Below the pieces are notes generated by a model that did not search any database, had not been told where the DNA came from, and worked only from the letters and a program-made list of their open reading frames with translations. Of a stretch of 64,000 nucleotides of DNA, positions 3,357 to 64,000 are shown one piece after another (the first letter of the stretch is position 1; each line of letters starts with the position of its first letter). The position numbers and the translations under genes were made by a program. The stretch lies in contig OZ024742.1 of assembly GCA_964016885.1 (NCBI GenBank), positions 287,928,001 to 287,992,000 on the forward strand, read 5' to 3'. The DNA is from Eledone cirrhosa. Taxonomy: Eukaryota.

Positions 3357-3613
3357 GCGTTCCTAAAGGAAGTTTGTAAGTTTAATCGTATATAAGAGAA
3401 AGTTGCAGCATGTATGTAGTTTTATCGAATTTTAAGGGGTGTAGAGAGAGAGGTAATCAGATTGTATTAGAGGGGTAAAGCGTCATGTATTTAGTTTTAT
3501 CGATTATTTCCGTAACTGTGGGTGAGTTTGAATGAAATAAATAGTCGTTGACATTCTTACAGACTTTGAGTCGAATAGGTTTGAAATTGTGCAAATGTAT
3601 AAACATGGAACAT

Positions 3614-3697
<84 letters not shown>

Positions 3698-3710
3698 TGC
3701 TTTTTATAGA
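2617..3710 (-). mobile_element. Non-autonomous Helitron inside a tektin intron
   Basis: Minus-strand 5' TCTATA start, 3' hairpin CCCGAGCAACGCCGGG followed by CTAG (2617-2644). Internal ~90-bp duplication (2913-3095) and (CT)n/(CA)n tracts. Confidence 0.7.
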
Positions 3711-3743
3711 TAATGATGATATATAGATAACAGTTAACTTTAC

Positions 3744-3966
3744 CTTTTGAAGATGAGCTTGCATTTTATTACGAGTGTCTGTAGTTTCTCGAATACGAGC
3801 GTTAAAAGCGTTGTTGACGGCATTAAATTGACTCCACATACCATTGGCACACTGTCTAAGACATGCATCTATTTCTCCGCGAAGACGCTCAGAATTGGCT
3901 CGTTCCTTCTGCGAACGTAGCAGGTTATGTTGCGTGTAACGGCTCCACGAGTCTGGGATACTTAAG
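3744..3966 (-). CDS. Tektin-3/5-like gene, internal exon (223 nt)
   Basis: cacag acceptor and gtaaag donor. Translates LSIPDSWSRYTQHNLLRSQKERANSERLRGEIDACLRQCANGMWSQFNAVNNAFNARIRETTDTRNKMQAHLQK, similar to TEKT3 (VPESWAKF..NILRSQSER..EMWNQFNKVN..KIQTHLAK, recalled from memory). Confidence 0.93.
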
Positions 3967-4048
3967 CTGTGAATAGCATATGTTGGGAAATGAATCTTTA
4001 AAACTTTTATTGAAATCTTTTGTCATATTTAGCAATTTCATAATCTCG

Positions 4049-5233: not shown

Positions 5234-5832
5234 TCGCAACAATGCAGCACGCCATTTTTGCATTCATATATATATTTTTTCCCCTAGCTGTGGTGTGTCT
5301 TCTTTCTATCTCCTTACTGCTATCCCCTTTCTCTCTCCCCCTTCTCCCTCCTTGTAACTCTTGCTTTCCTTCACCCCCTCTGCTGGTCACACACTCTCTC
5401 AGCTGGCCTCTTCCTCACACTTTAGCTCACTCACTCTCTGCTACTCCCCCTCTCTCACTTCCTCCCGTCTGACCTGTGTGAAATCCTTTTCTCTCTCACT
5501 TTTCGCGTGGTTCGGACGTGTCTGCCTCTTCTCGTCGATTGATTTGTTCGGACTTATGTCCACAAGTATCATTGACTTGTCTCTCTTTTCCTCTCTTTAC
5601 GTTGCATTACTACTATGTTGTTTGTTTACTTTCCTCATTCAATTCGCTCTGTCCCAATAACTTATTTTAGTTATTGCTCCCACTGATTTTGAGGTGTCTG
5701 GTCTTTAATGCGAAGAAATACCAATGATAGTCGGCAGACAACTGATGATGGTCAGTCCCGTTTCTCGGTCTATTTTCATTCATATGTATCACACTCGCAA
5801 CAACGCAGCACGCCATTTTTTCATTCATATAT
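5234..5832 (+). mobile_element. Non-coding terminally redundant 561-bp element (retrozyme-like) carrying a permuted hammerhead motif
   Basis: ~40-bp direct repeat at 5234 and 5795, CT-rich body, (TA)n flanks, homology to 40539-41124 and 62741-63669. Confidence 0.7.
5678..5749 (+). ncRNA. Candidate permuted hammerhead ribozyme, copy 3 (GUC site, predicted cut after 5698)
   Basis: GGTGTC|TGGTCT TTAAT GCGA A GAAATACC AATGATA GTCGG C AGACAA CTGATGA T; stems complementary with two mismatches. Confidence 0.6.
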
Positions 5833-19119: not shown

Positions 19120-22100
19120 TCAGGATTTGGGCACCATGGCCCATTCGAGAAGAGAATTACTGTTTGCGGAGACATATCCGGGTGTGGGTGGTTTGTCCGG
19201 GATTACTTGGAGGAATTTGTCCAAAGACTTCTTGAATTTTGTGTGGTCAGTTTCTGTTTTGACGTGTCCTGGTGTGATGTTGAAGAGAGCAGGGCCGATT
19301 GAGGTGAAATAATTGTGCCGTATTGTTGTTATGAGTTGCGATTTAGATTTTTGAATGGGACGGATAGCACGGGGCCCAAGCCTTGGGTGTATCTTGAAGG
19401 CGATGCCAACATCATTTGGGCAGTGATGATGGAACATTTTCCACATCATGCAGATAATATAACGCTCACGGCGACGTTGGAGTGAGTAAAGTTTCAGGTT
19501 TTCCAATCGACCCCAGTAATCAAGGTCTGACATGCCATCTATCTTTTTCGTGATTGCCCTTTGAGGAGCTTCAAGTTTCATGATACTTTGTTTCGTGTGG
19601 GGAGACCACAGTGGACAACAGTATTCAAGGTGTGGTCGGGCGAAAGTAGAGAAGAGAAGGATAATGGTGCGGGAATCTCTCGACTGGAAGGTTCTGAGGA
19701 TCCAGGAACACATTCTGCGGGCCATGTCAACTTTGCTGCTTATATGCGTGGTCCAGCTTATGTTGCTGTCCACGGTTACTCCCAAGTCTCTGATGTTGTT
19801 AGATGCCACGAGAGTTTCCCCGGAGGGAAGGGAGTACGGGAGTTTCAGAGCATCCTCTTTTCCAAAGTGGATCAGTTCGAATTTGTCTTCGTTCAGTAAC
19901 ATGTTGTTCTTTTCTGCCCATTGGGTAACAGCCAGTAGGTCTGACTGAAGGCTTATCCGGTCATCCACGCCATTGATGACCTTTTGGAGCTTGGAATCAT
20001 CAGCGAAAATTTTAATGTTGCTGTGTTTGATGATGTCAGTGATGTCATTAATATAGATGATGAAGAGAAGTGGGCCCAACACAGTGCCTTGTGGGACTCC
20101 ACTACTGACTTTGGCTGGGCTTGATTTGACTCCCTCAACTACAACATGTTGGGTTCTGTTTGACAGGAAGCTCTTGATCCACTGCAGCAGCTTTCCAGTG
20201 ACACCAATATTGGACAGCTTTCTCAGTAGAATGTTATGATCAACCCTGTCAAAGGCCTTGCTGAAATCAAGGTAGATAACATCAGTGTTGGAACCCTCTC
20301 CCAAGGCTCTCAAAATGTCATCAAAGTGATGCAGTAGTTGCGTCAGGCAATCCCTTCCATTACGGAATCCATGCTGGTTGGAGTTCAGCATATTGTTACT
20401 CTCAAGGAAGTGGGTCATTCGCGATCTCACCACTCGCTCAAATACCTTAATGATATGAGAGGTGAGTGAGATTGGACGGTAATTCACGGCAAGGGATTTG
20501 TTTCCCTTTTTGAAAACTGGGACAACAGACTGGGATAGAAGGTTTTCTGGCACATATCCAGCATCCAGTGAGTTCCGCCACAGATTGGCAAGAGGAGAAG
20601 CAAGTTGGTGTTGACACGCCTTCAAGACACAAGCAGGGAACCTATCGGGACCTACTGCTGAATTATGCTTGATTTCCTTTATTGCCGCCAAGACATCAGG
20701 GGCGCCAAACGTTATGTCCGATAAGGTGTAATGGGGAGTAACATCGCCGATACAGCCCAGATCGGCCATATCAGGATTGCTGAAAACAGAGCAGTATTGT
20801 TTCTGCAGTATCTCACCCATGGTTTTAGCATTGTCTTGAAGAGTGCCATTTTCATCAATTAGAGGGCCAACAGTAGAGCCAGTGATTTTGTGTTTTTTTG
20901 CAAATGAAAAGAACACTTTGGGATTAAGTTTGATCTTCTCAATGGCCCAGGCCTCTTCAGCTCTTCTCTGATTGTTGATGAGGGACATTATGTTGTTTTG
21001 GAGGTTATGTTTTTTAATCTCTAGTGATGAAATGGCAGTCAAGTTGATGTGTTGCTGCTGACAGTATTTCAGATTGTTGATTTTTTTGTTCGTTCTCTTA
21101 ATTTTTCTGATGAGCGTTTTTCTATTTCTAGGGATTCTGCTCTTAGATTTGTTTATAGTTCTTAATGGGGTGTGTTTAGCACATATGTTTGTAACAGTGT
21201 CCACAAATGTCTGCCAGGACTTTTTGATGTTAGTGGGTGTATGAGTGTGCGTGAAGGACCAGTCGACATGTGCAAGATCATGACTGATCGCTTCCCAGTT
21301 TGCATTGTGGAAATCCATAGCGTCAAACGGATGGACAGGAGAAATGACATTGGGTTTGTATATTGGACGGTGGAATCTCAGATCACAGAGAACCATGTCA
21401 TGATCAGAGAGTAGAGTTTTCTCCACTGCAATATTGTGGATATTGTCAGTGTGATTGCTGAAAATTAAGTCTAGGACGTTTTTGTGGCACCTCGTTGGTT
21501 CGAGCACTAGTTGGGATAGGAAGAAATCATCCATGAAGTCAAGAAGCGATTCCACAGCTTCCCTGTCAGAGGTTGAGGCAGAAGAACCTGGTGGCAGGGT
21601 GTTTGTGGACCAGTCAACTCCGGGGAGGTTGAAGTCCCCCATCATTAAGATGTTGTCAGGGTGACACTCTTGGATGAAACACTTTATGCTGTTGAGGCAT
21701 TCCTTGAAGCATGGTACAGGCGTTTGGGGTGGCCTATAGAGCCCAACTACTAATAGGTTGTTGGTTTGACTGAATACAGTGACTGCCTCACAGTATCCAT
21801 TAGTGAATATGTTCATAGCCTCTGTTGAGAAAGAATTATGGACATAAATGGCAGTTCCGCCCTTTCTTCTGCCAGCGCGATCAGCACGGATGGCTTTGAA
21901 ATTTTTCACTTTCACCTCGGCTTCCAAGTGGAGGTTACTGAGATGGGTTTCAGTGAGGACGAAGAAAGGGATGTGGTTTGGATGGACATCAATCCAGTCC
22001 TCCAGGAATTTGATCTTCCATTTTTGAGTATTGGTGGAAGGGCTGATGCCTTGGGCGTTAAGCAAAAATGTAGAGGCGAGAGTGGATGGTTTTAATTGTT

Positions 22101-22140
22101 TTGGTGTGTTGTTAATTTGTTTGTTTGTTAATGGCAGCAA
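19120..22140 (-). CDS. LINE ORF2: apurinic-like endonuclease plus reverse transcriptase
   Basis: APE motifs LTETHL, YRPP, GDFN, LDLIF, SDH; RT motifs [36 protein letters not shown]; CR1-type RPHLEYC..WSP. Uninterrupted for 1006 aa, with no AUG before the APE domain. Confidence 0.95.
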   Translation of the reverse strand: MLPLTNKQINNTPKQLKPSTLASTFLLNAQGISPSTNTQKWKIKFLEDWIDVHPNHIPFFVLTETHLSNLHLEAEVKVKNFKAIRADRAGRRKGGTAIYVHNSFSTEAMNIFTNGYCEAVTVFSQTNNLLVVGLYRPPQTPVPCFKECLNSIKCFIQECHPDNILMMGDFNLPGVDWSTNTLPPGSSASTSDREAVESLLDFMDDFFLSQLVLEPTRCHKNVLDLIFSNHTDNIHNIAVEKTLLSDHDMVLCDLRFHRPIYKPNVISPVHPFDAMDFHNANWEAISHDLAHVDWSFTHTHTPTNIKKSWQTFVDTVTNICAKHTPLRTINKSKSRIPRNRKTLIRKIKRTNKKINNLKYCQQQHINLTAISSLEIKKHNLQNNIMSLINNQRRAEEAWAIEKIKLNPKVFFSFAKKHKITGSTVGPLIDENGTLQDNAKTMGEILQKQYCSVFSNPDMADLGCIGDVTPHYTLSDITFGAPDVLAAIKEIKHNSAVGPDRFPACVLKACQHQLASPLANLWRNSLDAGYVPENLLSQSVVPVFKKGNKSLAVNYRPISLTSHIIKVFERVVRSRMTHFLESNNMLNSNQHGFRNGRDCLTQLLHHFDDILRALGEGSNTDVIYLDFSKAFDRVDHNILLRKLSNIGVTGKLLQWIKSFLSNRTQHVVVEGVKSSPAKVSSGVPQGTVLGPLLFIIYINDITDIIKHSNIKIFADDSKLQKVINGVDDRISLQSDLLAVTQWAEKNNMLLNEDKFELIHFGKEDALKLPYSLPSGETLVASNNIRDLGVTVDSNISWTTHISSKVDMARRMCSWILRTFQSRDSRTIILLFSTFARPHLEYCCPLWSPHTKQSIMKLEAPQRAITKKIDGMSDLDYWGRLENLKLYSLQRRRERYIICMMWKMFHHHCPNDVGIAFKIHPRLGPRAIRPIQKSKSQLITTIRHNYFTSIGPALFNITPGHVKTETDHTKFKKSLDKFLQVIPDKPPTPGYVSANSNSLLEWAMVPKS

Positions 22141-23291
22141 TGGGAGTTTGTGCAGTGGGGTGATAGTGGAGGGTGGTGCTGGGTGATAGCTCGAATGTTT
22201 TTTTCCAGTTCTTTTGCCAGATTCATTATGGCTAAAAAAGAGGAAGAAGTTTCCTGTTTAGAAGACTGTTGGTGACTGTGGTAGTGGTTATTTTTATGTA
22301 GGTTATGGTTTTTGTTTTTGCTTTTATTTTCATTTATCCGACGGGTCCCCGGGAGATGGGTAAAGGGACAATCCCGGTCTAAACACAATCTGTCTCGCAG
22401 GGAAAAACGGCAGATTTGTGGATTCCTTGTTTGAGTTATTGGTGGTTGTGTTGGTGTTAAATTAGAGTATGTATTATGGTGGTGGCTGTTTGTGGGGATA
22501 GATCGTTTTGTCCTAGGTAAATGGGTGAATTTGCAGCCACTATCCGTACATATTCTATAGCGTAGAGAGTAGCGGCAAATGATGGGGTTTCGAGTGGGTG
22601 GGTATATGGGTGTGGGTGTTGTGAGAGGTGTAGATGATGGTTTGGGTAGGATTTGACGACCTTTGTGGACTGTGGGAGGGAGAGTTCTTGTTCTGGTATT
22701 AGAAGGTAAATTCCTTGACATAGCAGTAGACAAAAATGTTGTAGTAGTAGTAGTAGTAGTAGGCAGAGATGTTGGCAGTGGTGATGATTGGACTGCTGGG
22801 CCAGAGAAAGGATGTGGCGTTTCATGCTGTGAGACAGAGGCTACTGGGGGGTCAATAGTTTCATTTAGTAGATCGGCCATTGTTGATGAATCAAGGAGTG
22901 GTTCACACTGTTGTTGTTGCTGTTGTTGATGTTGTTGTTGTAGCTGTTGTTGATGTTGTTGTTGTTGCTGTTGTAGCTGCTGTTGTTGTTGTTGTTGCTG
23001 TTGTAGCTGCTGTTGTTGTTGTTGCTGCTGCTGGACAGCATTCGAAGAGAAAACACACCGTAGTTTATCCAAATGTTTATTGATTAATTTAAAAGCAATT
23101 TCGATTTGCTTTAATTTATTTTGAATCTGTTGTTCAGATCGAGTTTTCAAAAATTGAACTGTACGTTTAGCAATGTCGTTCAGAGATGAAGCATCTATAT
23201 CTTCTGTTTGGGAAAGGCAATGCCATGTGTTTATTAGAATGTCGATTTCATTATCAGACCAGTTCTGTTTGGATTTTTGCTGGTTAGCCAT
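22128..23291 (-). CDS. LINE ORF1: Myb/SANT-like N-terminus, polyQ tract, two CCCH-type zinc fingers
   Basis: AUG start; WSDNEIDILINTW..RSEQQIQNKLKQI; CRYSLRYRICTDSGCKFTH and CRFSLRDRLCLDRDCPFTH. Confidence 0.85.
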   Translation of the reverse strand: MANQQKSKQNWSDNEIDILINTWHCLSQTEDIDASSLNDIAKRTVQFLKTRSEQQIQNKLKQIEIAFKLINKHLDKLRCVFSSNAVQQQQQQQQQLQQQQQQQQQLQQQQQQHQQQLQQQHQQQQQQQCEPLLDSSTMADLLNETIDPPVASVSQHETPHPFSGPAVQSSPLPTSLPTTTTTTTTFLSTAMSRNLPSNTRTRTLPPTVHKGRQILPKPSSTPLTTPTPIYPPTRNPIICRYSLRYRICTDSGCKFTHLPRTKRSIPTNSHHHNTYSNLTPTQPPITQTRNPQICRFSLRDRLCLDRDCPFTHLPGTRRINENKSKNKNHNLHKNNHYHSHQQSSKQETSSSFLAIMNLAKELEKNIRAITQHHPPLSPHCTNSHCCH

Positions 23292-27583: not shown

Positions 27584-29353
27584 TTTACTCTTTTACCCTT
27601 TTACCTGTTTCAGCCATCCGGCTGAGGCCATGCTGGGGCACCGCCCTTGTTACTACACATTTTATCTCCAGCCTGTATAGGTTGGCCACTGGTGTAAGAG
27701 GGAGTTTGTTGCTGCTGCCCTTAGGTTTCCCTCGTGTCTTGCTGTGGGCTCATCCGGGATCCTGGATAACAAGGTGTCGAGATGTTTCTTAAAGACATCC
27801 ACCTCCACGTCATGCAAGTCTCTCAGTTGCCCCGGCAGCCTGTTGAAGAGTTGAGGGCCCTTGAATCCCAGGCTATTGCAATACCTGCTCCTTATTCTAG
27901 ATGTCGAAGACGGGACCTTTGGCACCACACAGTGACGTCCTGTTCGACGGTTGGTCCAGCTCCCAATGCCAAAGTTTGGTGCTAGTCCCTCCAGGATTTT
28001 CCCCATGTAGATCACTGCGTATCTCTCCCGTCTTCGCTCCAAGGAGTAGAGGTTCAGTTCCTTTAGCCTCTCCCAGTAGCTTGTCTCCCTCATCTTGGCA
28101 ATCCTCTTGGTGTAGCTTCGCTGGATTGCCACAAGCTCCGTGGTTAGTTTGACACTATGGGGTGACCACAACTGGGAGCAGTAGTCCAGGCGGCTTAGGA
28201 CAAAAGTCCTCCACAGTGTCAACATGGTGTCTCGATCTCTTGTCCGGAAAGTCCTCAAGATCCAGCCAGCGAGTCGTATGCACGTTGTCGCCACTTTCAT
28301 GATGTGTGAAGAAAAAGATGCATCATCGCTCATGTCTATGCCCAGGTCTCGTATCGATTTTGACACGAGGATATCGGTCCCTCCTGGTCCTGTGTAGCTG
28401 TGTTCCACTATATTTGTGTTTGCAGGTTTGTATTGTAGGGCTTGGAATTTGCCAGCATTAAACTGCATGTTGTTTTCTTCCGCCCATCTGTATATGGCAT
28501 CCAGATCCTGCTGTAAAAGGGCAGCGTCAGCCGGGTTTTTGATTGCCTGTGCTACCTTAGTGTCATCAGCATAGCTAGTGAGGGATGTTGTTGCATGCAC
28601 CACAGAGGGCATGTCCGAGAGAGCCACCAAAAACAGTAATGGTCCCAGGACTGTCCCCTGGGGCACCCCACTTGTTATCGGTGTTTCCCTCAAGAGGGCC
28701 CCATTTGCTGCGACTGCCTGGCTTCTGTCCCTTAGGAAGCCATGCAGCCACTCACCTACTTTTCCAGTTATGCCGAGTCCGTGTAGTTTGTGACATATCA
28801 TTCCGTAGTCGACCTTGTCAAAGGCCTTCGCAAAGTCAAGATATATCACGTCCACATGTGAGCTGTCTAGTAGTTGTCTCAGTACCCAGTCGTAGTGATG
28901 TAGCAGCTGTGTAAGGCAGCTTCTTCCTGGGCGCAAGCCATGTTGCGTGCTAGTCAGGCGGTCATTTTCTTCGAGGAAAGTGATTAGTTTCTTTCTGACA
29001 ACTCGCTCCATGACCTTACTGATATGCGACGTCAGGGAGACTGGCCTATAGTTCTTGGCCTCCGCTCTACTACCTCCTTTATGGATAGGGCATATTGTGC
29101 CTTCTTTCAGCTCCCTGGGTAGTACACCGCTAGCCAAGGAGCTTCTGAAGAGCATCTTCAGTGGAGTTGCTAGGGCCCGCTTACATATTTTTAAGAGAAT
29201 TGCTGGGAATCCATCAGGTCCAGCATCCGAGTCTGTTCTAATTTCATCAATGGCGTACACCACATCCTCCTCCGTTATGTCTATGTGGTTGATGGTTGCC
29301 ATTTCTTGATGTAGTGTTGTGGCATCAAAGAACTCCTCTGGCTTCGTTATTTG
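27584..29353 (-). mobile_element. 5'-truncated CR1-group LINE (second family) with an open RT frame at 27662-29353
   Basis: [48 protein letters not shown]; 3' end GGTGCCCCAGCATGG..GCTGAAAC plus a (GTAAAAG/A)n tail. The N-terminus given in the ORF track is microsatellite. Confidence 0.92.
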
Positions 29354-29382
29354 CATATATATATATATACATATATATTTAC

Positions 29383-29414
<32 letters not shown>

Positions 29415-29463
29415 GTATATATATTTACATATATATATATATATATACATATATATAAATATG

Positions 29464-29516
<53 letters not shown>

Positions 29517-29528
29517 GTATATATATAC

Positions 29529-29576
<48 letters not shown>

Positions 29577-29610
29577 GTATATATATACATATATATACAT
29601 ATATATATAC

Positions 29611-29649
<39 letters not shown>

Positions 29650-29748
29650 CGTATATATATACATATATATACATATATATATACATATATATACATATAT
29701 ATATACATATATATATATACATATATATACATATATATAGATATACAT

Positions 29749-29779
<31 letters not shown>

Positions 29780-30322
29780 TATACATATATATATATATGT
29801 ACATATATATACATATATATATATATGTACATATATATACATATATATATATATATATACATACGTATATATATGTACTTATATATACATATATATATAT
29901 ACATACGTATATATATATACATATATATACATATATATACATACGTATATATATATACATATATATACATATATATATGTACATATATATACATATATAT
30001 ATGTACATATATATACATATATATATGTACATATATATACATGTATATATATACCTACATATATATATATACATATATATATATATACATATATATATAC
30101 ATATATATATACATATATATACATATATATACATGTATATATATACCTACATATATATATATAAATATATATATACATATATATACATGTATATATATAC
30201 CTACATATATATATATATACATATATATATACATATAAATATATATATACATATATATATACATATAAATATATATATACATATATATACATGTATATAT
30301 ATACCTACATATATATATATAC

Positions 30323-40538: not shown

Positions 40539-41117
40539 AAACATGAGAAGAAAGAAGAATACTGCGTGGTTGCACATGGGTTACATATGATAAAATTAGT
40601 CCTTCGTCAGTGATTTGCCAACTATCATTGATATTTCATCGCATTAAAAATCATATACCTCAGGTTGGTGCGAGCAATAACTAAAAAAAGCTATTGGGAC
40701 AAGTAAATCGCGTAAAGCGAGGGGGACAAGTAAACAACATAGAAGGATGAAAGCAACGCAAAGATGGGAATAAACAAGCAACATGGTTATCCGGTCAGCA
40801 TAAACTGGGTGGATTTCATGAACGAGAGAGTTACAGACCGTCCGATGTGAGTGAGATGTGAGCAAGAAGAGAACCCACTACAAGCCAAACGTGTGGAAGT
40901 GAGAAGGGGAGAAACAGAGAGTGAGTGAGTGGAAGTGCGAGGAAGAGGTCAGTCGAGAGAAAGTGTAACTGACAGAGGGGGCGAAAGAAGGTGAGAGCAA
41001 CAGAGAGAACGGGAAGCAGTAAGAGAGAAACAGACAATCGCAGCCAAGGTAAATATGTATAAAAAAACATGAGAAGAAAGAAGAATACTGCGTGGTTGCA
41101 CATGGGTTACATATGAT

Positions 41118-45533: not shown

Positions 45534-45991
45534 TTTTTCAATGATTTTTTACATCCTTGACCTCCTTTCCAACACAAGAGACATATAGAAACATATGCAT
45601 ACATTGATGCACAGTGGGTTGACATCCATTATAATAATATAGCATGGCAATATACATACAAAGATTAAAGACATATTGAAGGACAAAATTAAAGTTAAAA
45701 TACAACATTGGCAGTTTACGAAGATAAAGCAAGAGGATAGTTTGAAGTAGTTAGTGTATGCAATAGTTACACGTGGGGCATGCACGTGTGTCTTATTTAT
45801 ATAAGATTATAGTGCGGCATGGTGTTACATGTAATACAAGCAGTTTAAGCAGGCAATCAAGAGTATTATGGGGGTTGTATTGGTAAAGTATTTTTTTTAT
45901 ATATATATGTATGATATCAAAAATATTAAAAGTATTAAAAGTGAGAAGCAAAACAACGCCACGGTCCTCGCATACACCACCATTTTCACAA

Positions 45992-47105
45992 GAAACGTAA
46001 ACATATTTAACAATAACTCGCAATATTATAATCAGGCATTAGCTAGATCAGGCCATAATATAGAAATCGAGTTCCTACCTACAAAAACACATAGCTACAA
46101 CATTATTTCGCACAACATGTCCATGAGGAAATTTAGTAATAAGAATAGCAACCACACACACAATAATACGGAGGATGCCAACAAAAGTAACCCACACCAC
46201 AGAAATTACCATAGTACCATAAAAAGAAACAACTCACCAGACATAAAAAACAAAAATAGAAGAAGAAATAATACATTTTTCAACCCTCCTTTCAATCTAA
46301 ACGTCTCTACCAACCTACCTAGGGCTTTCTTCTCACTACTAGATAAAAACTTCCCATCTGGCCACAAGTACCATAACCTTTTAAACAAAAACACTATTAA
46401 AATCTCCTACTCTACTACGCCTAACATAGCATACCACATAGCTAGTAGCAATAAAAGAAAAATTAATTCTTACTTCCAACAAACTAAATCACAACAGACG
46501 ATAAACCTTCAAAATAACATTATATCAACTAACCCTAATAACAATAGAAATAATAACAATAGCACTAGTGTAAGCAATAACGCTGGGAACGACAACCTCC
46601 ATAACCATAATCCTATAGCTACCATCCGGACTTCTACACAACATAATAACCGGCAGACTAACACCCAGAATAATTGTAACTGTAGATCTAATAGAACCTG
46701 CCCTTTAGATAAAAAAAATGCTTAATCAAGGATATCATATACTCATGCACCGTCACAACTAGCAACTCTTCTGAAACGTATATAGGCTCTACTTCAAACT
46801 GCTTCAAAACCAGATACAATTCGCACCTCCACTCTTTCAAAAAACACAGTCTAGCCAACTCCACTTCACTATCTAGCTACATACACTATCTAAAAACTAA
46901 AAATAAATCATATACACTTAAATGGGAAGTGATAGGTAACGCGACATCGTACAAACCACCTAATAAATTTTGTAACCTCTGTCTACTAGAGACCCATACT
47001 ATTATCTTCTCAAACCATAACCTCCTTAATAAAAAATCAGAAGTGTTCGCGTCTTGCCAGCACCGCTTCCGACACTCCTTCCAAAACTTTAAACCCAATA
47101 TATAA
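45992..47105 (+). pseudogene. Naiad-type PLE ORF C-terminus (RT thumb, linker, GIY-YIG), frameshifted at the A8 run 46711-46718
   Basis: FFNPPFNLNVSTN..IKISYSTTPN; CNC..CPL..CLIKDIIYSC..YIGST..FKTRYNSH..CNLCLLE..LLNKKSE..CQH; stop at 47103-47105. Confidence 0.85.
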
Positions 47106-61905: not shown

Positions 61906-62270
61906 TTAGCGATCTCTCTCTATAACTCTTAGTCTTTCTCTTTTTAGATAGATACATAGATATAACGTTGCGCCTTTATAATATCTATCTGTATGTCTGG
62001 CTGTCTGCATTACGACATTATGACGTAGCTGTGTGTGTGTGTGTGTGTGTATAGTGTGTAACGTTTTTCGAAATATTAATTCTGTGTTCACAGATTGATT
62101 TTTTTATTTTAGTTTCAGAAGATCCCGTTAAGAGTGATAGCAGCGATTCTTTGCTTAAACTTTAATCTGTTATTTCAATATATATATATTTATATATTAG
62201 AAAGTGAGGTTTTTTTACAAAATGAAAAATAACCGAGGTGTCCTACACGTGTGAAAGTATAAAGAAAAAA

Positions 62271-62506
62271 AGATGAAATCGAAAATGCAACTGGAGTCTT
62301 ATTTTTTAAAAAATATATGTATATTTATTTGGTTCCTTTACCGGTTTCGCAGTTCTTCTGCTTTTCAAAAGTAGAGTTGAGATGGAGGGTCTGTGGTTTT
62401 TCTCACTTTTGAAAAGCAGAAGAACTGCGAAACCGGTAAAGGAACCAAATAAATATACATATATTTTTTTTTAAATAAGACTCCAGTTGCATTTTCGATT
62501 TCATCT
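62271..62506. repeat. ~100-bp near-perfect inverted repeat (inverted pLTR ends)
   Basis: Arms 62271-62372 and 62404-62506; each carries an HHR variant and AATAAA. Confidence 0.8.
62406..62441 (+). ncRNA. Minimal hammerhead variant with a U3-A8 core (mirror copy at 62336-62371 on -)
   Basis: CTT TTGAAAA GCAG-AAGAA-CTGC GAAA CCGG TA AAG. Confidence 0.55.
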
Positions 62507-62510
62507 CTTT

Positions 62511-62551
<41 letters not shown>

Positions 62552-62836
62552 TATATTCGTGTACAGATATTTTTGCATACGCAATAACAAAATATAAACA
62601 AAAGTATTTATTCGCGATAAAGTATTGATTTTCTTCGCACGGAAAAAACCCTGGTAATCTATGACGAATTTTTTTTATAAGCACAAAATGTAGACACCAT
62701 CCCGAGGCCGGAGTATTCCGTACTTCTCTGTACATATATATCTATTTCTTCTCACTTTCCGTTGCTTAAACCTTTTTGTTTGTTACCCTGGCGTCCCCTT
62801 TGTTTACGTGTCCCAACGACTTTTTTTAGCCGTTGT

Positions 62837-62907
62837 TCGCACCAACCTGAGGCATATGGCCCTTAAAGCGATGAAATGCCTGGGACGGTTGGAGGGTCAC
62901 TGATGAA
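62837..62907 (+). ncRNA. Candidate permuted hammerhead ribozyme, copy 1a (predicted cut after 62856)
   Basis: TCGC A CCAAC CTGA GGCATA|TGGCCC TTAAA GCGA T GAAATGCC TGGGACG GTTGG A GGGTCA CTGATGA A. Confidence 0.7.
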
Positions 62908-63329
62908 GGACTTACTTTTTCATATGCACCACCATTTGCAACGCGCAGCCATCATTATTATCATATTTACACATAATTTTTCTTCTGCTGCCACTCGTCT
63001 GTTTCGCTCTTTGTACCTTTTAACCTTTCTCGTTCTTTGTACCTTTTACCCTTTCTAGCAGTCTCTCTCTCTGTTAGCCTCCTCCTCAACTTTCACTCAC
63101 TCATTCTCTGTCACTACCTCTCCTCCTCCTCTTTCCTCCTCCTCCTTCAAGTTTGACCTGTGTGTAATTCTTTTCTCGCGCGGTCTTGACCAAGCTGGTA
63201 TGGAATTTTTTTCTCTCTCTCTCTTTCGTCTGCGACTTCACAAAACTTATGTTTACCGAATTCGTTGACCAGACCCCTTTATCTTCTTCTTCTTCTTCTT
63301 CTTCTTCTTCTTCTTCTTCTTCTTCTTCT

Positions 63330-63364
<35 letters not shown>

Positions 63365-63585
63365 TCTTCCCCCCCCCCGTTAGACCTGTGCGAAATTCTT
63401 TCCTTGCTCACATTTCAACCAGGTTTGATGGTCTTTTGTCTCTTGTTCACGATTTCACCGAGTTTATATTCATAGAGATCTGGGACTTGTCTATTTCTTC
63501 TCACTTTCCGTTGCTTAAACCTTTTTGTTTGTTACCCTGGCGTCCCCTTTGTTTACGTGTCCCAACGACTTTTTTTAGCCGTTGT

Positions 63586-63656
63586 TCGCACCAACCTGAG
63601 GCATATGGCCCTTAAAGCGATGAAATGCCTGGGACGGTTGGAGGGTCACTGATGAA
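63586..63656 (+). ncRNA. Candidate permuted hammerhead ribozyme, copy 1b (predicted cut after 63605)
   Basis: Identical to 62837-62907, offset 749. Confidence 0.7.
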
Positions 63657-64000
63657 GGACTTACTTTTTATATATATATATATATATATATATTAAAATA
63701 ACAGATTAAAGTTTAAGCAAAGAATCGCTGCTTTCACCCTTAACGGGATCTTCTGAAACTAAAAAAATCAATCTGTGAACGCAGAAGTAAATATTTCGAA
63801 AAACGTTGCAACAGAAGAAAGAGAGGAAGACGATACTTTGGTTCGTGGAAACGTTCCCTGGCAAAGAACGAAAAAAAACGAAGATATTACGTCGTTATTT
63901 GGAGCGGTGAAAACAATTACACGCAAAGACAAAACCACGTTTATGGTATAACTGAAGTCGTAGACTAAAATACTATTTAGGGAACCGAATGATTCTCGGC

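Follow-up and report, generated by a model that had tools for sequence, protein, structure and literature searches.

Two identical direct repeats, each carrying a hammerhead-like motif, raise the question of what kind of element lies near the end of the window, the 64,000-nucleotide stretch of DNA analysed here, and how its RNA might fold, cleave and spread. The repeats lie at 62741-62920 and 63490-63669 on the forward strand, are 100% identical over 180 nt and are spaced 749 nt apart. Both contain a permuted hammerhead-type motif in which a cleavage block is followed by a GAAA block and then by a CUGAUGA block; a 19-nt piece of this motif occurs twice in the window, a count reached in 0 of 100 shuffles. 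The original prediction of a non-autonomous retroelement is supported by our analysis, with the predicted cut falling where it had been placed, between 62856 and 62857 (63605/63606 in the second copy), and with a body that is indeed non-coding (the longest frame over the element, 141 aa, is low-complexity) and CT-rich, the 749-nt unit comprising 312 U, 222 C, 114 A and 101 G for a GC content of 43%. An Rfam scan of the element returned no ribozyme family (0 of 10 matches at E<=1), its ten matches being sub-threshold and miRNA-like.

The plant-retrozyme style of two terminal repeats is not supported by comparison with other loci. The repeat boundaries are not the termini of the element: the same 180 nt recur at 100% identity in 28 other loci, and in most other loci the element continues about 42-55 nt past the 3' repeat boundary and starts at varying 5' positions. 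The two repeats represent the part of the unit that is present twice in an insertion 1.24 units long. The inserted repeat is non-coding, tandem and 5'-truncated, targets (TA)n and has Penelope-like element (PLE) ends. The whole insertion (62741-63669, +) is a 5'-truncated tandem copy of a PLE-type retrozyme that ends at the first of two 3' end points used by the family, 63 nt after the predicted cut. Repeat copy 1 (62741-62920, +) is therefore the overlap of a partial tandem, resembling an LTR without being one, and repeat copy 2 (63490-63669, +) reproduces it identically, so that all helix coordinates given below recur at +749. Cleavage at both sites would release a 749-nt monomer (62857-63605, +), a hypothetical linear or circular RNA. 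The body includes a (CTT)n microsatellite (63282-63369, +) whose variable length adds to the spread of unit lengths, here about 630-800 nt, and the window copy lacks the optional 3' 'tail' segment (positions 62921-62975, +, in the first unit) in which most family copies end, about 106 nt after the cut. The end points, the (TA)n tract and the variable 5' starts match the insertion structure described for PLEs. On this basis the window copy represents a partial tandem of 1.24 units that lacks the tail, rather than an LTR element. The description of the element as sitting in (TA)n holds for its 3' junction, where an unstranded target tract occupies 63669-63693, but not for its 5' junction, which has only about (AT)4 at 62734-62741; a long (TA)n stretch occupies 62514-62556, some 185 nt upstream of the insertion. 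Likewise, the recent origin read from the identical repeats stands for the family, which is young, but the identity of the repeats does not date this insertion in the manner of LTR identity, because a single reverse-transcription pass across more than one unit accounts for it.

The youth of the family is evident in the genome of the window (3.0 Gb), where a search with the 180-nt repeat gave 1,415 candidates, 40 of which were scored. Thirty of the 40, among them the two in the window, match all 180 nt at 100% identity, and these 30 loci, a few of which overlap so that not all are independent, have insertion lengths of 230-1710 nt and variable 5' starts. Looser motif patterns that demanded GAAA and CUGAnGA, and not the cleavage block, recovered 5,092 copies (12 in the control) and 19,352 copies (0 in the control), spread over many subfamilies. 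Copies span 0.3 to 9 units and stop at variable 5' points with the cut site intact, one array holds 9 motifs, inverted neighbours occur at many loci, and unit lengths run from about 445 to 800 nt across the family and from 721 to 806 nt within the array at locus L098. The 38 distinct terminal ends of the window's subfamily abut (TA)n or a similar microsatellite and fall into two groups, 9 lying 63-65 nt and 29 lying 100-120 nt after the predicted cut. An inverted duplication of the 5' flank serves as no main argument here, because it was flagged in only 4 of 30 loci and was clear in just 2. The features of non-autonomous PLEs are nonetheless present, including 5' truncation, partial tandems, inverted neighbours, an optional 3' tail and a microsatellite target, as is the arrangement by which metazoan retrozymes are recognised, a non-coding tandem repeat with one hammerhead per unit. 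That the element is a PLE-type non-autonomous repeat is, in our judgement, nearly certain. A fuller reading, which we regard as reasonably probable, is that the insertion represents a young member of a Penelope-like, non-autonomous retrozyme family whose RNA folds as an SGC-order hammerhead with an upstream-domain junction, and which follows the cycle and the Naiad descent proposed below.

Hammerhead numbering and geometry provide the position names for this fold, which we describe on the first repeat copy. Block S (62850-62863, +) consists of the 5' strand of stem III (62850-62855), H17 (62856), the predicted cut, placed by hammerhead analogy, and a stem I strand (62857-62863). Block G (62868-62881, +) consists of the 3' strand of helix Y, N11.1 (62872), GAAA (62873-62876) and the 3' strand of stem III (62876-62881). 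The next segment (62887-62911, +) begins with the 3' strand of helix X and continues into block C, with the second stem I strand (62893-62899), CUGAUGA (62900-62906), N10.1 (62907) and the 3' strand of helix Z (62908-62911). Their partners lie upstream on the same strand: the 5' strand of helix Z (62810-62813) pairs with 62908-62911, the stem II strand position after CUGAUGA; hairpin W (62814-62835) joins 62814-62820 to 62829-62835; the 5' strand of helix Y (62837-62840) pairs with 62868-62871, the stem II strand position before GAAA; and the 5' strand of helix X (62842-62847) pairs with 62887-62892. Blocks S, G and C are thus present in that order with CUGAnGA, GAAA and UH, and GAAA sits 27 nt ahead of CUGAUGA, so that the motif does not have the topology of a type I hammerhead.

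The helices were evaluated on an alignment of 42 hand-picked copies, comprising 37 of 48 cluster representatives and 5 added copies; the 11 representatives left out were truncated (2) or redundant or decayed (9), a choice that favours pairing. Stem I is paired in 86% of cells, with double changes in 5 of 7 pairs and 6 compensatory tree edges, and stem III in 84.5%, with double changes in 3 of 6 pairs and 2 edges. The corresponding values are 82%, 4 of 4 and 2 for helix Z; 92.5%, 3 of 7 and 3 for hairpin W; 89.5%, 3 of 5 alignment pairs and 2 for helix Y; and 94.4%, 5 of 6 and 7 for helix X. Over all 37 named pairs, 88.3% of cells are paired compared with 76.7% after shuffling and 30.9-43.7% after sliding, double changes occur in 24 pairs, and compensatory double changes fall on 22 tree branches compared with a mean of 1.3 and at most 7 in 5000 null re-pairings, tests that lean toward the model because the structure was read from the same, hand-picked sequences. 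An unbiased ranking placed just 16 model pairs among its top 40, and a mutual-information ranking on a gapless alignment was discarded as confounded by clade structure, which dominated it, and by a register shift. The UH rule is kept, U16.1 being present in 41 of the 42 copies and H17 differing from G in all of them, while the invariance of GAAA and CUGAnGA is no evidence, because the search patterns required both. Nested folding of the motif gave a z of -0.34 and pair probabilities of <=0.04 for stems I, Y and Z, to which it is blind because the method cannot show pseudoknots; the 749-nt monomer gave a folding z of -2.26 and was 39% paired as a circle. Overall, we consider the hammerhead fold as drawn highly probable.

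The unusual part of this fold is the region where stem II would be expected. A direct stem II was considered and rejected, its five pairs forming in 29, 19, 1, 4 and 24 of the 42 copies, or in 24, 17, 4, 2 and 19 with one inserted base. The stem II strands pair instead with the upstream domain, the pre-GAAA strand in Y and the post-CUGAUGA strand in Z, with W between. The N10.1-N11.1 pair forms in just 29 of 42 copies and has 0 compensatory edges. No helix bracketing block C, as in the stem I-II interaction of SGC ribozymes, was found, the strand 5' of stem I pairing upstream of block S, in helix X, and not 3' of block C. The model that accommodates these observations would replace stem II with a junction to the upstream domain (Y, W, Z) and extend stem III by helix X. 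The junction between helix X and stem I appears hard to fit in a monomer, and cleavage may need two copies exchanging C blocks, because helix X abuts stem I without a linker.

The order of the blocks corresponds to a published class of ribozyme. Type SGC was defined as a non-circular permutation with the order S-G-C by Eckert et al. (2023, PMC10085705), whose non-circularly permuted hammerheads comprise 583 SGC and 2 CSG sequences; ribozymes of the SGC class cleave at the corresponding site (PMC10085705). In our judgement, the predicted ribozyme described here is probably catalytically active. Our motif shares with HRIMA-1 and the SGC variant of that study the S-G-C order, an intact CUGAnGA, GAAA and UH, stems I and III, and a 3-nt linker from stem I to the next strand. 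In those ribozymes stem II is a direct 5-bp helix and a further helix brackets block C, features replaced here by Y, W, Z and X; the type-SGC accessions examined are metagenome or metatranscriptome records (PMC10085705), whereas the present motif occurs at about 19,000 copies in an animal genome. Octopus, mollusc and retrozyme had no match in the portion of the PMC10085705 supplement covered. With metazoan non-LTR retrozymes (Cervera and de la Pena 2020, PMC7229834; Li et al. 2026, 10.64898/2026.07.22.740005) the element has in common non-coding tandems with one hammerhead per unit, a GC content below 50% (here 43%) and a proposed dependence on PLEs. Those retrozymes are defined by, and found with descriptors for, type I hammerheads (PMC7229834; 10.64898/2026.07.22.740005), in contrast to the SGC order here, and their units are usually 150-450 nt with highly self-paired circles (PMC7229834), whereas ours are about 445-800 nt, pyrimidine-rich and weakly paired, with a hypothetical circle. 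Plant LTR retrozymes (Cervera et al. 2016, via PMC7229834 and 10.64898/2026.07.22.740005) likewise have a ribozyme spacing of about 700 nt and are non-coding, but they possess true LTRs, type III hammerheads, 4-bp TSDs, a GC content above 55% and a dependence on Gypsy, compared with no fixed LTR, SGC order and 43% GC here. The element accordingly lacks one defining feature of metazoan retrozymes (type I topology) and two of SGC ribozymes (the direct stem II and the bracketing helix). Our search of the open-licence literature found no report of non-circularly permuted hammerheads in animal genomes or transposons; the supplements of 10.64898/2026.07.22.740005 may list related families.

A likely origin of the fold is suggested by the Naiad group of PLEs, which are reported to prefer (TA)n and to lack a canonical hammerhead, with 8 families marked 'HHR_half_core' (Craig et al. 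2021, PMC8557442), and are autonomous, with an ORF that carries an N-terminal GIY-YIG (PMC8557442). From the PMC8557442 supplement, 49 Naiad consensus records were compared over their final 330-400 characters, by eye rather than by computation. In 5 of these 49 3' ends, from octopus (Naiad_Obim, Naiad_Ovul) and coral (Naiad_Amil, Aacu, Anas), the full Z-W-Y-X-III-I arrangement could be traced by eye around an SGC core of different letters; six nematode Naiads (Naiad-1, -2 and -3_Nbra, Hcon, Hpol, Asuum) appeared by eye to have a hammerhead that is complete, is in CSG order and has a normal stem II; and the other 38 gave no clear core by eye in the text compared, a few being partial. The same Z-W-Y-X-III-I arrangement was also recognised by eye in other families of the genome studied here. 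The element resembles Naiads (PMC8557442) in its (TA)n preference, 5' truncation, partial tandems, inverted copies and optional tail, as well as in the ribozyme-like fold seen by eye in the two octopus and three coral consensus 3' ends, and differs from these autonomous elements with their GIY-YIG ORF in having no ORF. This structural likeness makes descent of the fold from the 3' end of Naiad PLEs most likely. We lean slightly toward a broader reading in which Naiads carry hammerheads, of SGC order in octopus and coral, where the stem II junction is split, and of CSG order in nematodes, and in which the SGC form here escaped into non-autonomous tandem repeats, now numbering tens of thousands and still amplifying via self-cleaved, possibly circular RNA after the decay of the Naiads; such Naiad hammerheads would have been missed because they are non-circularly permuted.

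The Naiad matches examined in this genome (30 matches) are old, decayed remnants, and a convincing motif lay downstream of 0 of 20 remnant tails, weak loose matches being judged chance. The resemblance of Naiad remnants to the octopus consensus by eye, together with a tektin exon, suggests that the host is a cephalopod. The motif was joined to a PLE ORF in none of 27 GIY-YIG loci scanned and in none of 17 loci where it accompanied a PLE protein match. Among the loci examined, which sample a small fraction of the roughly 19,000 motif copies and of the two sets of PLE candidates (10,597 and 37,695), none of the Hydra-like, Neptune-like or Naiad loci had the motif attached, no terminal sequence was common to the motif family and an autonomous PLE of the same genome, and no sequence-level link of the family to a Naiad was found. 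A PLE ORF 1.3 kb upstream of the motif in locus L096 was rejected as a partner, being a separate insertion cut off by (TA)n tracts. The decayed state of the Naiad copies examined makes it probable that a different PLE mobilises the family today; candidates are the long open PLE frames of the genome, of 830 aa in 4 loci and of 938-1096 aa, which we provisionally class, partly by eye, as Hydra-like or Neptune-like.

The insertion structure suggests how such a family could be copied. Read-through transcription of a tandem copy would be followed by cleavage after 62856 and 63605, performed either by a single motif or by two copies that exchange their C blocks, yielding a 749-nt unit that may be re-ligated. 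A PLE RT/GIY-YIG protein, a putative enzyme acting in trans, would then nick DNA at (TA)n, the target seen in the genome, and reverse transcription would start at one of two internal sites, some 64 or 106 nt past the cut, consistent with the observed end points. Copying would proceed back through the intact cut site for 0.3 to 9 units to variable stops, as the genomic structure displays. The PLE 'tail' is made by two internal start sites (PMC11167929), and the bimodal 3' ends of our family match that two-start scheme. Insertions are longer than one unit and cross an intact cut site, so the template would be either circular or an uncleaved multimer; sequence cannot separate the two, and the circle junction is identical to the genomic tandem junction. 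A unit-length circle in vivo is a tentative proposal to which we give somewhat less than even weight. Counting against it are the low pairing of the monomer, the PAc PLE in vitro, where uncleaved RNA was the main substrate and RNA-seq gave no ends at the site (PMC11167929), and predicted Xenopus retrozyme dimers, 8 of 9 of which did not cleave (10.64898/2026.07.22.740005). For a Poseidon PLE, HHR cleavage proved dispensable in vitro (PMC11167929).

Some of these facts also bear on an alternative, which we consider unlikely, in which the conserved fold is mainly a recognition or pausing structure for a PLE protein, cleavage is slow or absent, and the template is an uncleaved linear multimer with no circle. 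A stem II base pair that is weak or absent (29 of 42 copies), a cut site that is always copied intact and a poorly self-paired monomer would all be expected under such a scheme, as would the unprocessed RNA taken by PAc with no RNA-seq ends at the site (PMC11167929) and the 8 of 9 inactive Xenopus dimers (10.64898/2026.07.22.740005). The UH rule, however, is kept though the search did not select for it, and complete hammerhead cores recur in unrelated sequences, in two non-circular orders and at Naiad 3' ends, a recurrence that would point to selection on catalysis.

Two further alternatives were weighed. A plant-type LTR retrozyme, with two terminal repeats that each self-cleave as monomers and release a 749-nt circle, would account for the identical repeats, the non-coding body and a unit size within the plant retrozyme range, but it is very improbable given that repeat limits vary by copy, arrays reach 9 motifs, 5' starts vary and 3' ends fall into two groups, the order is not type III and the target is (TA)n; its LTR part is already contradicted by the variable repeat limits and the insertion structure. 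Tandems arising from DNA-level amplification (unequal crossing-over, satellite-like) or from assembly error, with the motif as a passenger, find a precedent in the local tandem expansion after PLE insertion proposed in the 2026 preprint (10.64898/2026.07.22.740005), and the differing units of the L098 array (721-806 nt) indicate that long arrays may include a DNA-level component. Dispersed copies on many contigs, non-integer unit numbers and fixed 3' with variable 5' ends are, by contrast, a signature of retrotransposition, and the family is present in contigs of two DNA-like runs, so that we hold this explanation to have little chance of being correct and retain the retrotransposed PLE-type retrozyme.

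If active, the ribozyme would represent about 19,000 copies, in one animal genome, of an architecture that PMC10085705 does not describe, would offer a direct answer to the published puzzle of Naiads without canonical hammerheads (PMC8557442), and would imply that retrozyme surveys with type I descriptors undercount. If Naiads do carry hammerheads, rearranged hammerheads would be a common feature of animal genomes and not a rarity confined to environmental RNA.

Several other features were noted in the course of this work. A second, diverged member of the same ribozyme family lies at 5648-5756 (+) of the window, with a mismatch in helix Y, in an element of about 5300-5830 that ends in (TA)n; a third, at 40596-40703 (-), belongs to an element of about 41123-40540 that lies between two (TA)n tracts, amounts to about 1.1 units of a shorter subfamily and has the tail segment repeated at its 5' end. 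Further SGC-ordered families with other sequences occur at L088 near 2312 (+), L190-L194 and L227-L238, several with C at 11.1 and G at 10.1 and some resembling the octopus Naiad end by eye. A GSC-like repeat family (G000:C8:13674416-13674457 and similar) has GAAA, a hairpin, a GUC triplet and CUGAnGA closely spaced, with no evident stem I hairpin, and pieces of it flank loci L005 and L096. Next to the insertion, a separate low-copy repeat with short inverted ends lies directly 5' (62557-62735), its first 56 nt recurring in loci L111 and L113, and a multi-copy foldback at 62258-62519, a 115-nt inverted repeat (96%) with a 32-nt loop, adjoins (TA)n.

PLE remnants are also found in and around the window. 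A 5'-truncated fragment at 45835-47100 (+) contains part of the GIY-YIG with one frameshift, in a family that has 830-aa open frames elsewhere, and the sequence past its 3' (TA)n appears by eye to be an inverted copy of its upstream flank. Another repeat has 3' ends at 63694-64000 (-) and 62076-62197 (+) that abut TA runs in opposite orientation; it is probably a PLE, on the basis of a GIY-YIG-like match just beyond the window in L017, and its minus-strand copy at 63694-64000 shows by eye a type I hammerhead fold with CAGAAGA instead of CUGAnGA. Locus L096 carries a 603-aa PLE ORF (RVT_1 and GIY-YIG) at 102-1910, with a tail at about 2290-2330 that resembles by eye a degenerate type I hammerhead, and a similar type I motif occurs in L159. 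The window further contains a LINE-type endonuclease-RT open frame of 1045 aa (19120-22257, -), a second LINE RT fragment (27662-29878, -) and a tektin exon (3504-4022, -).
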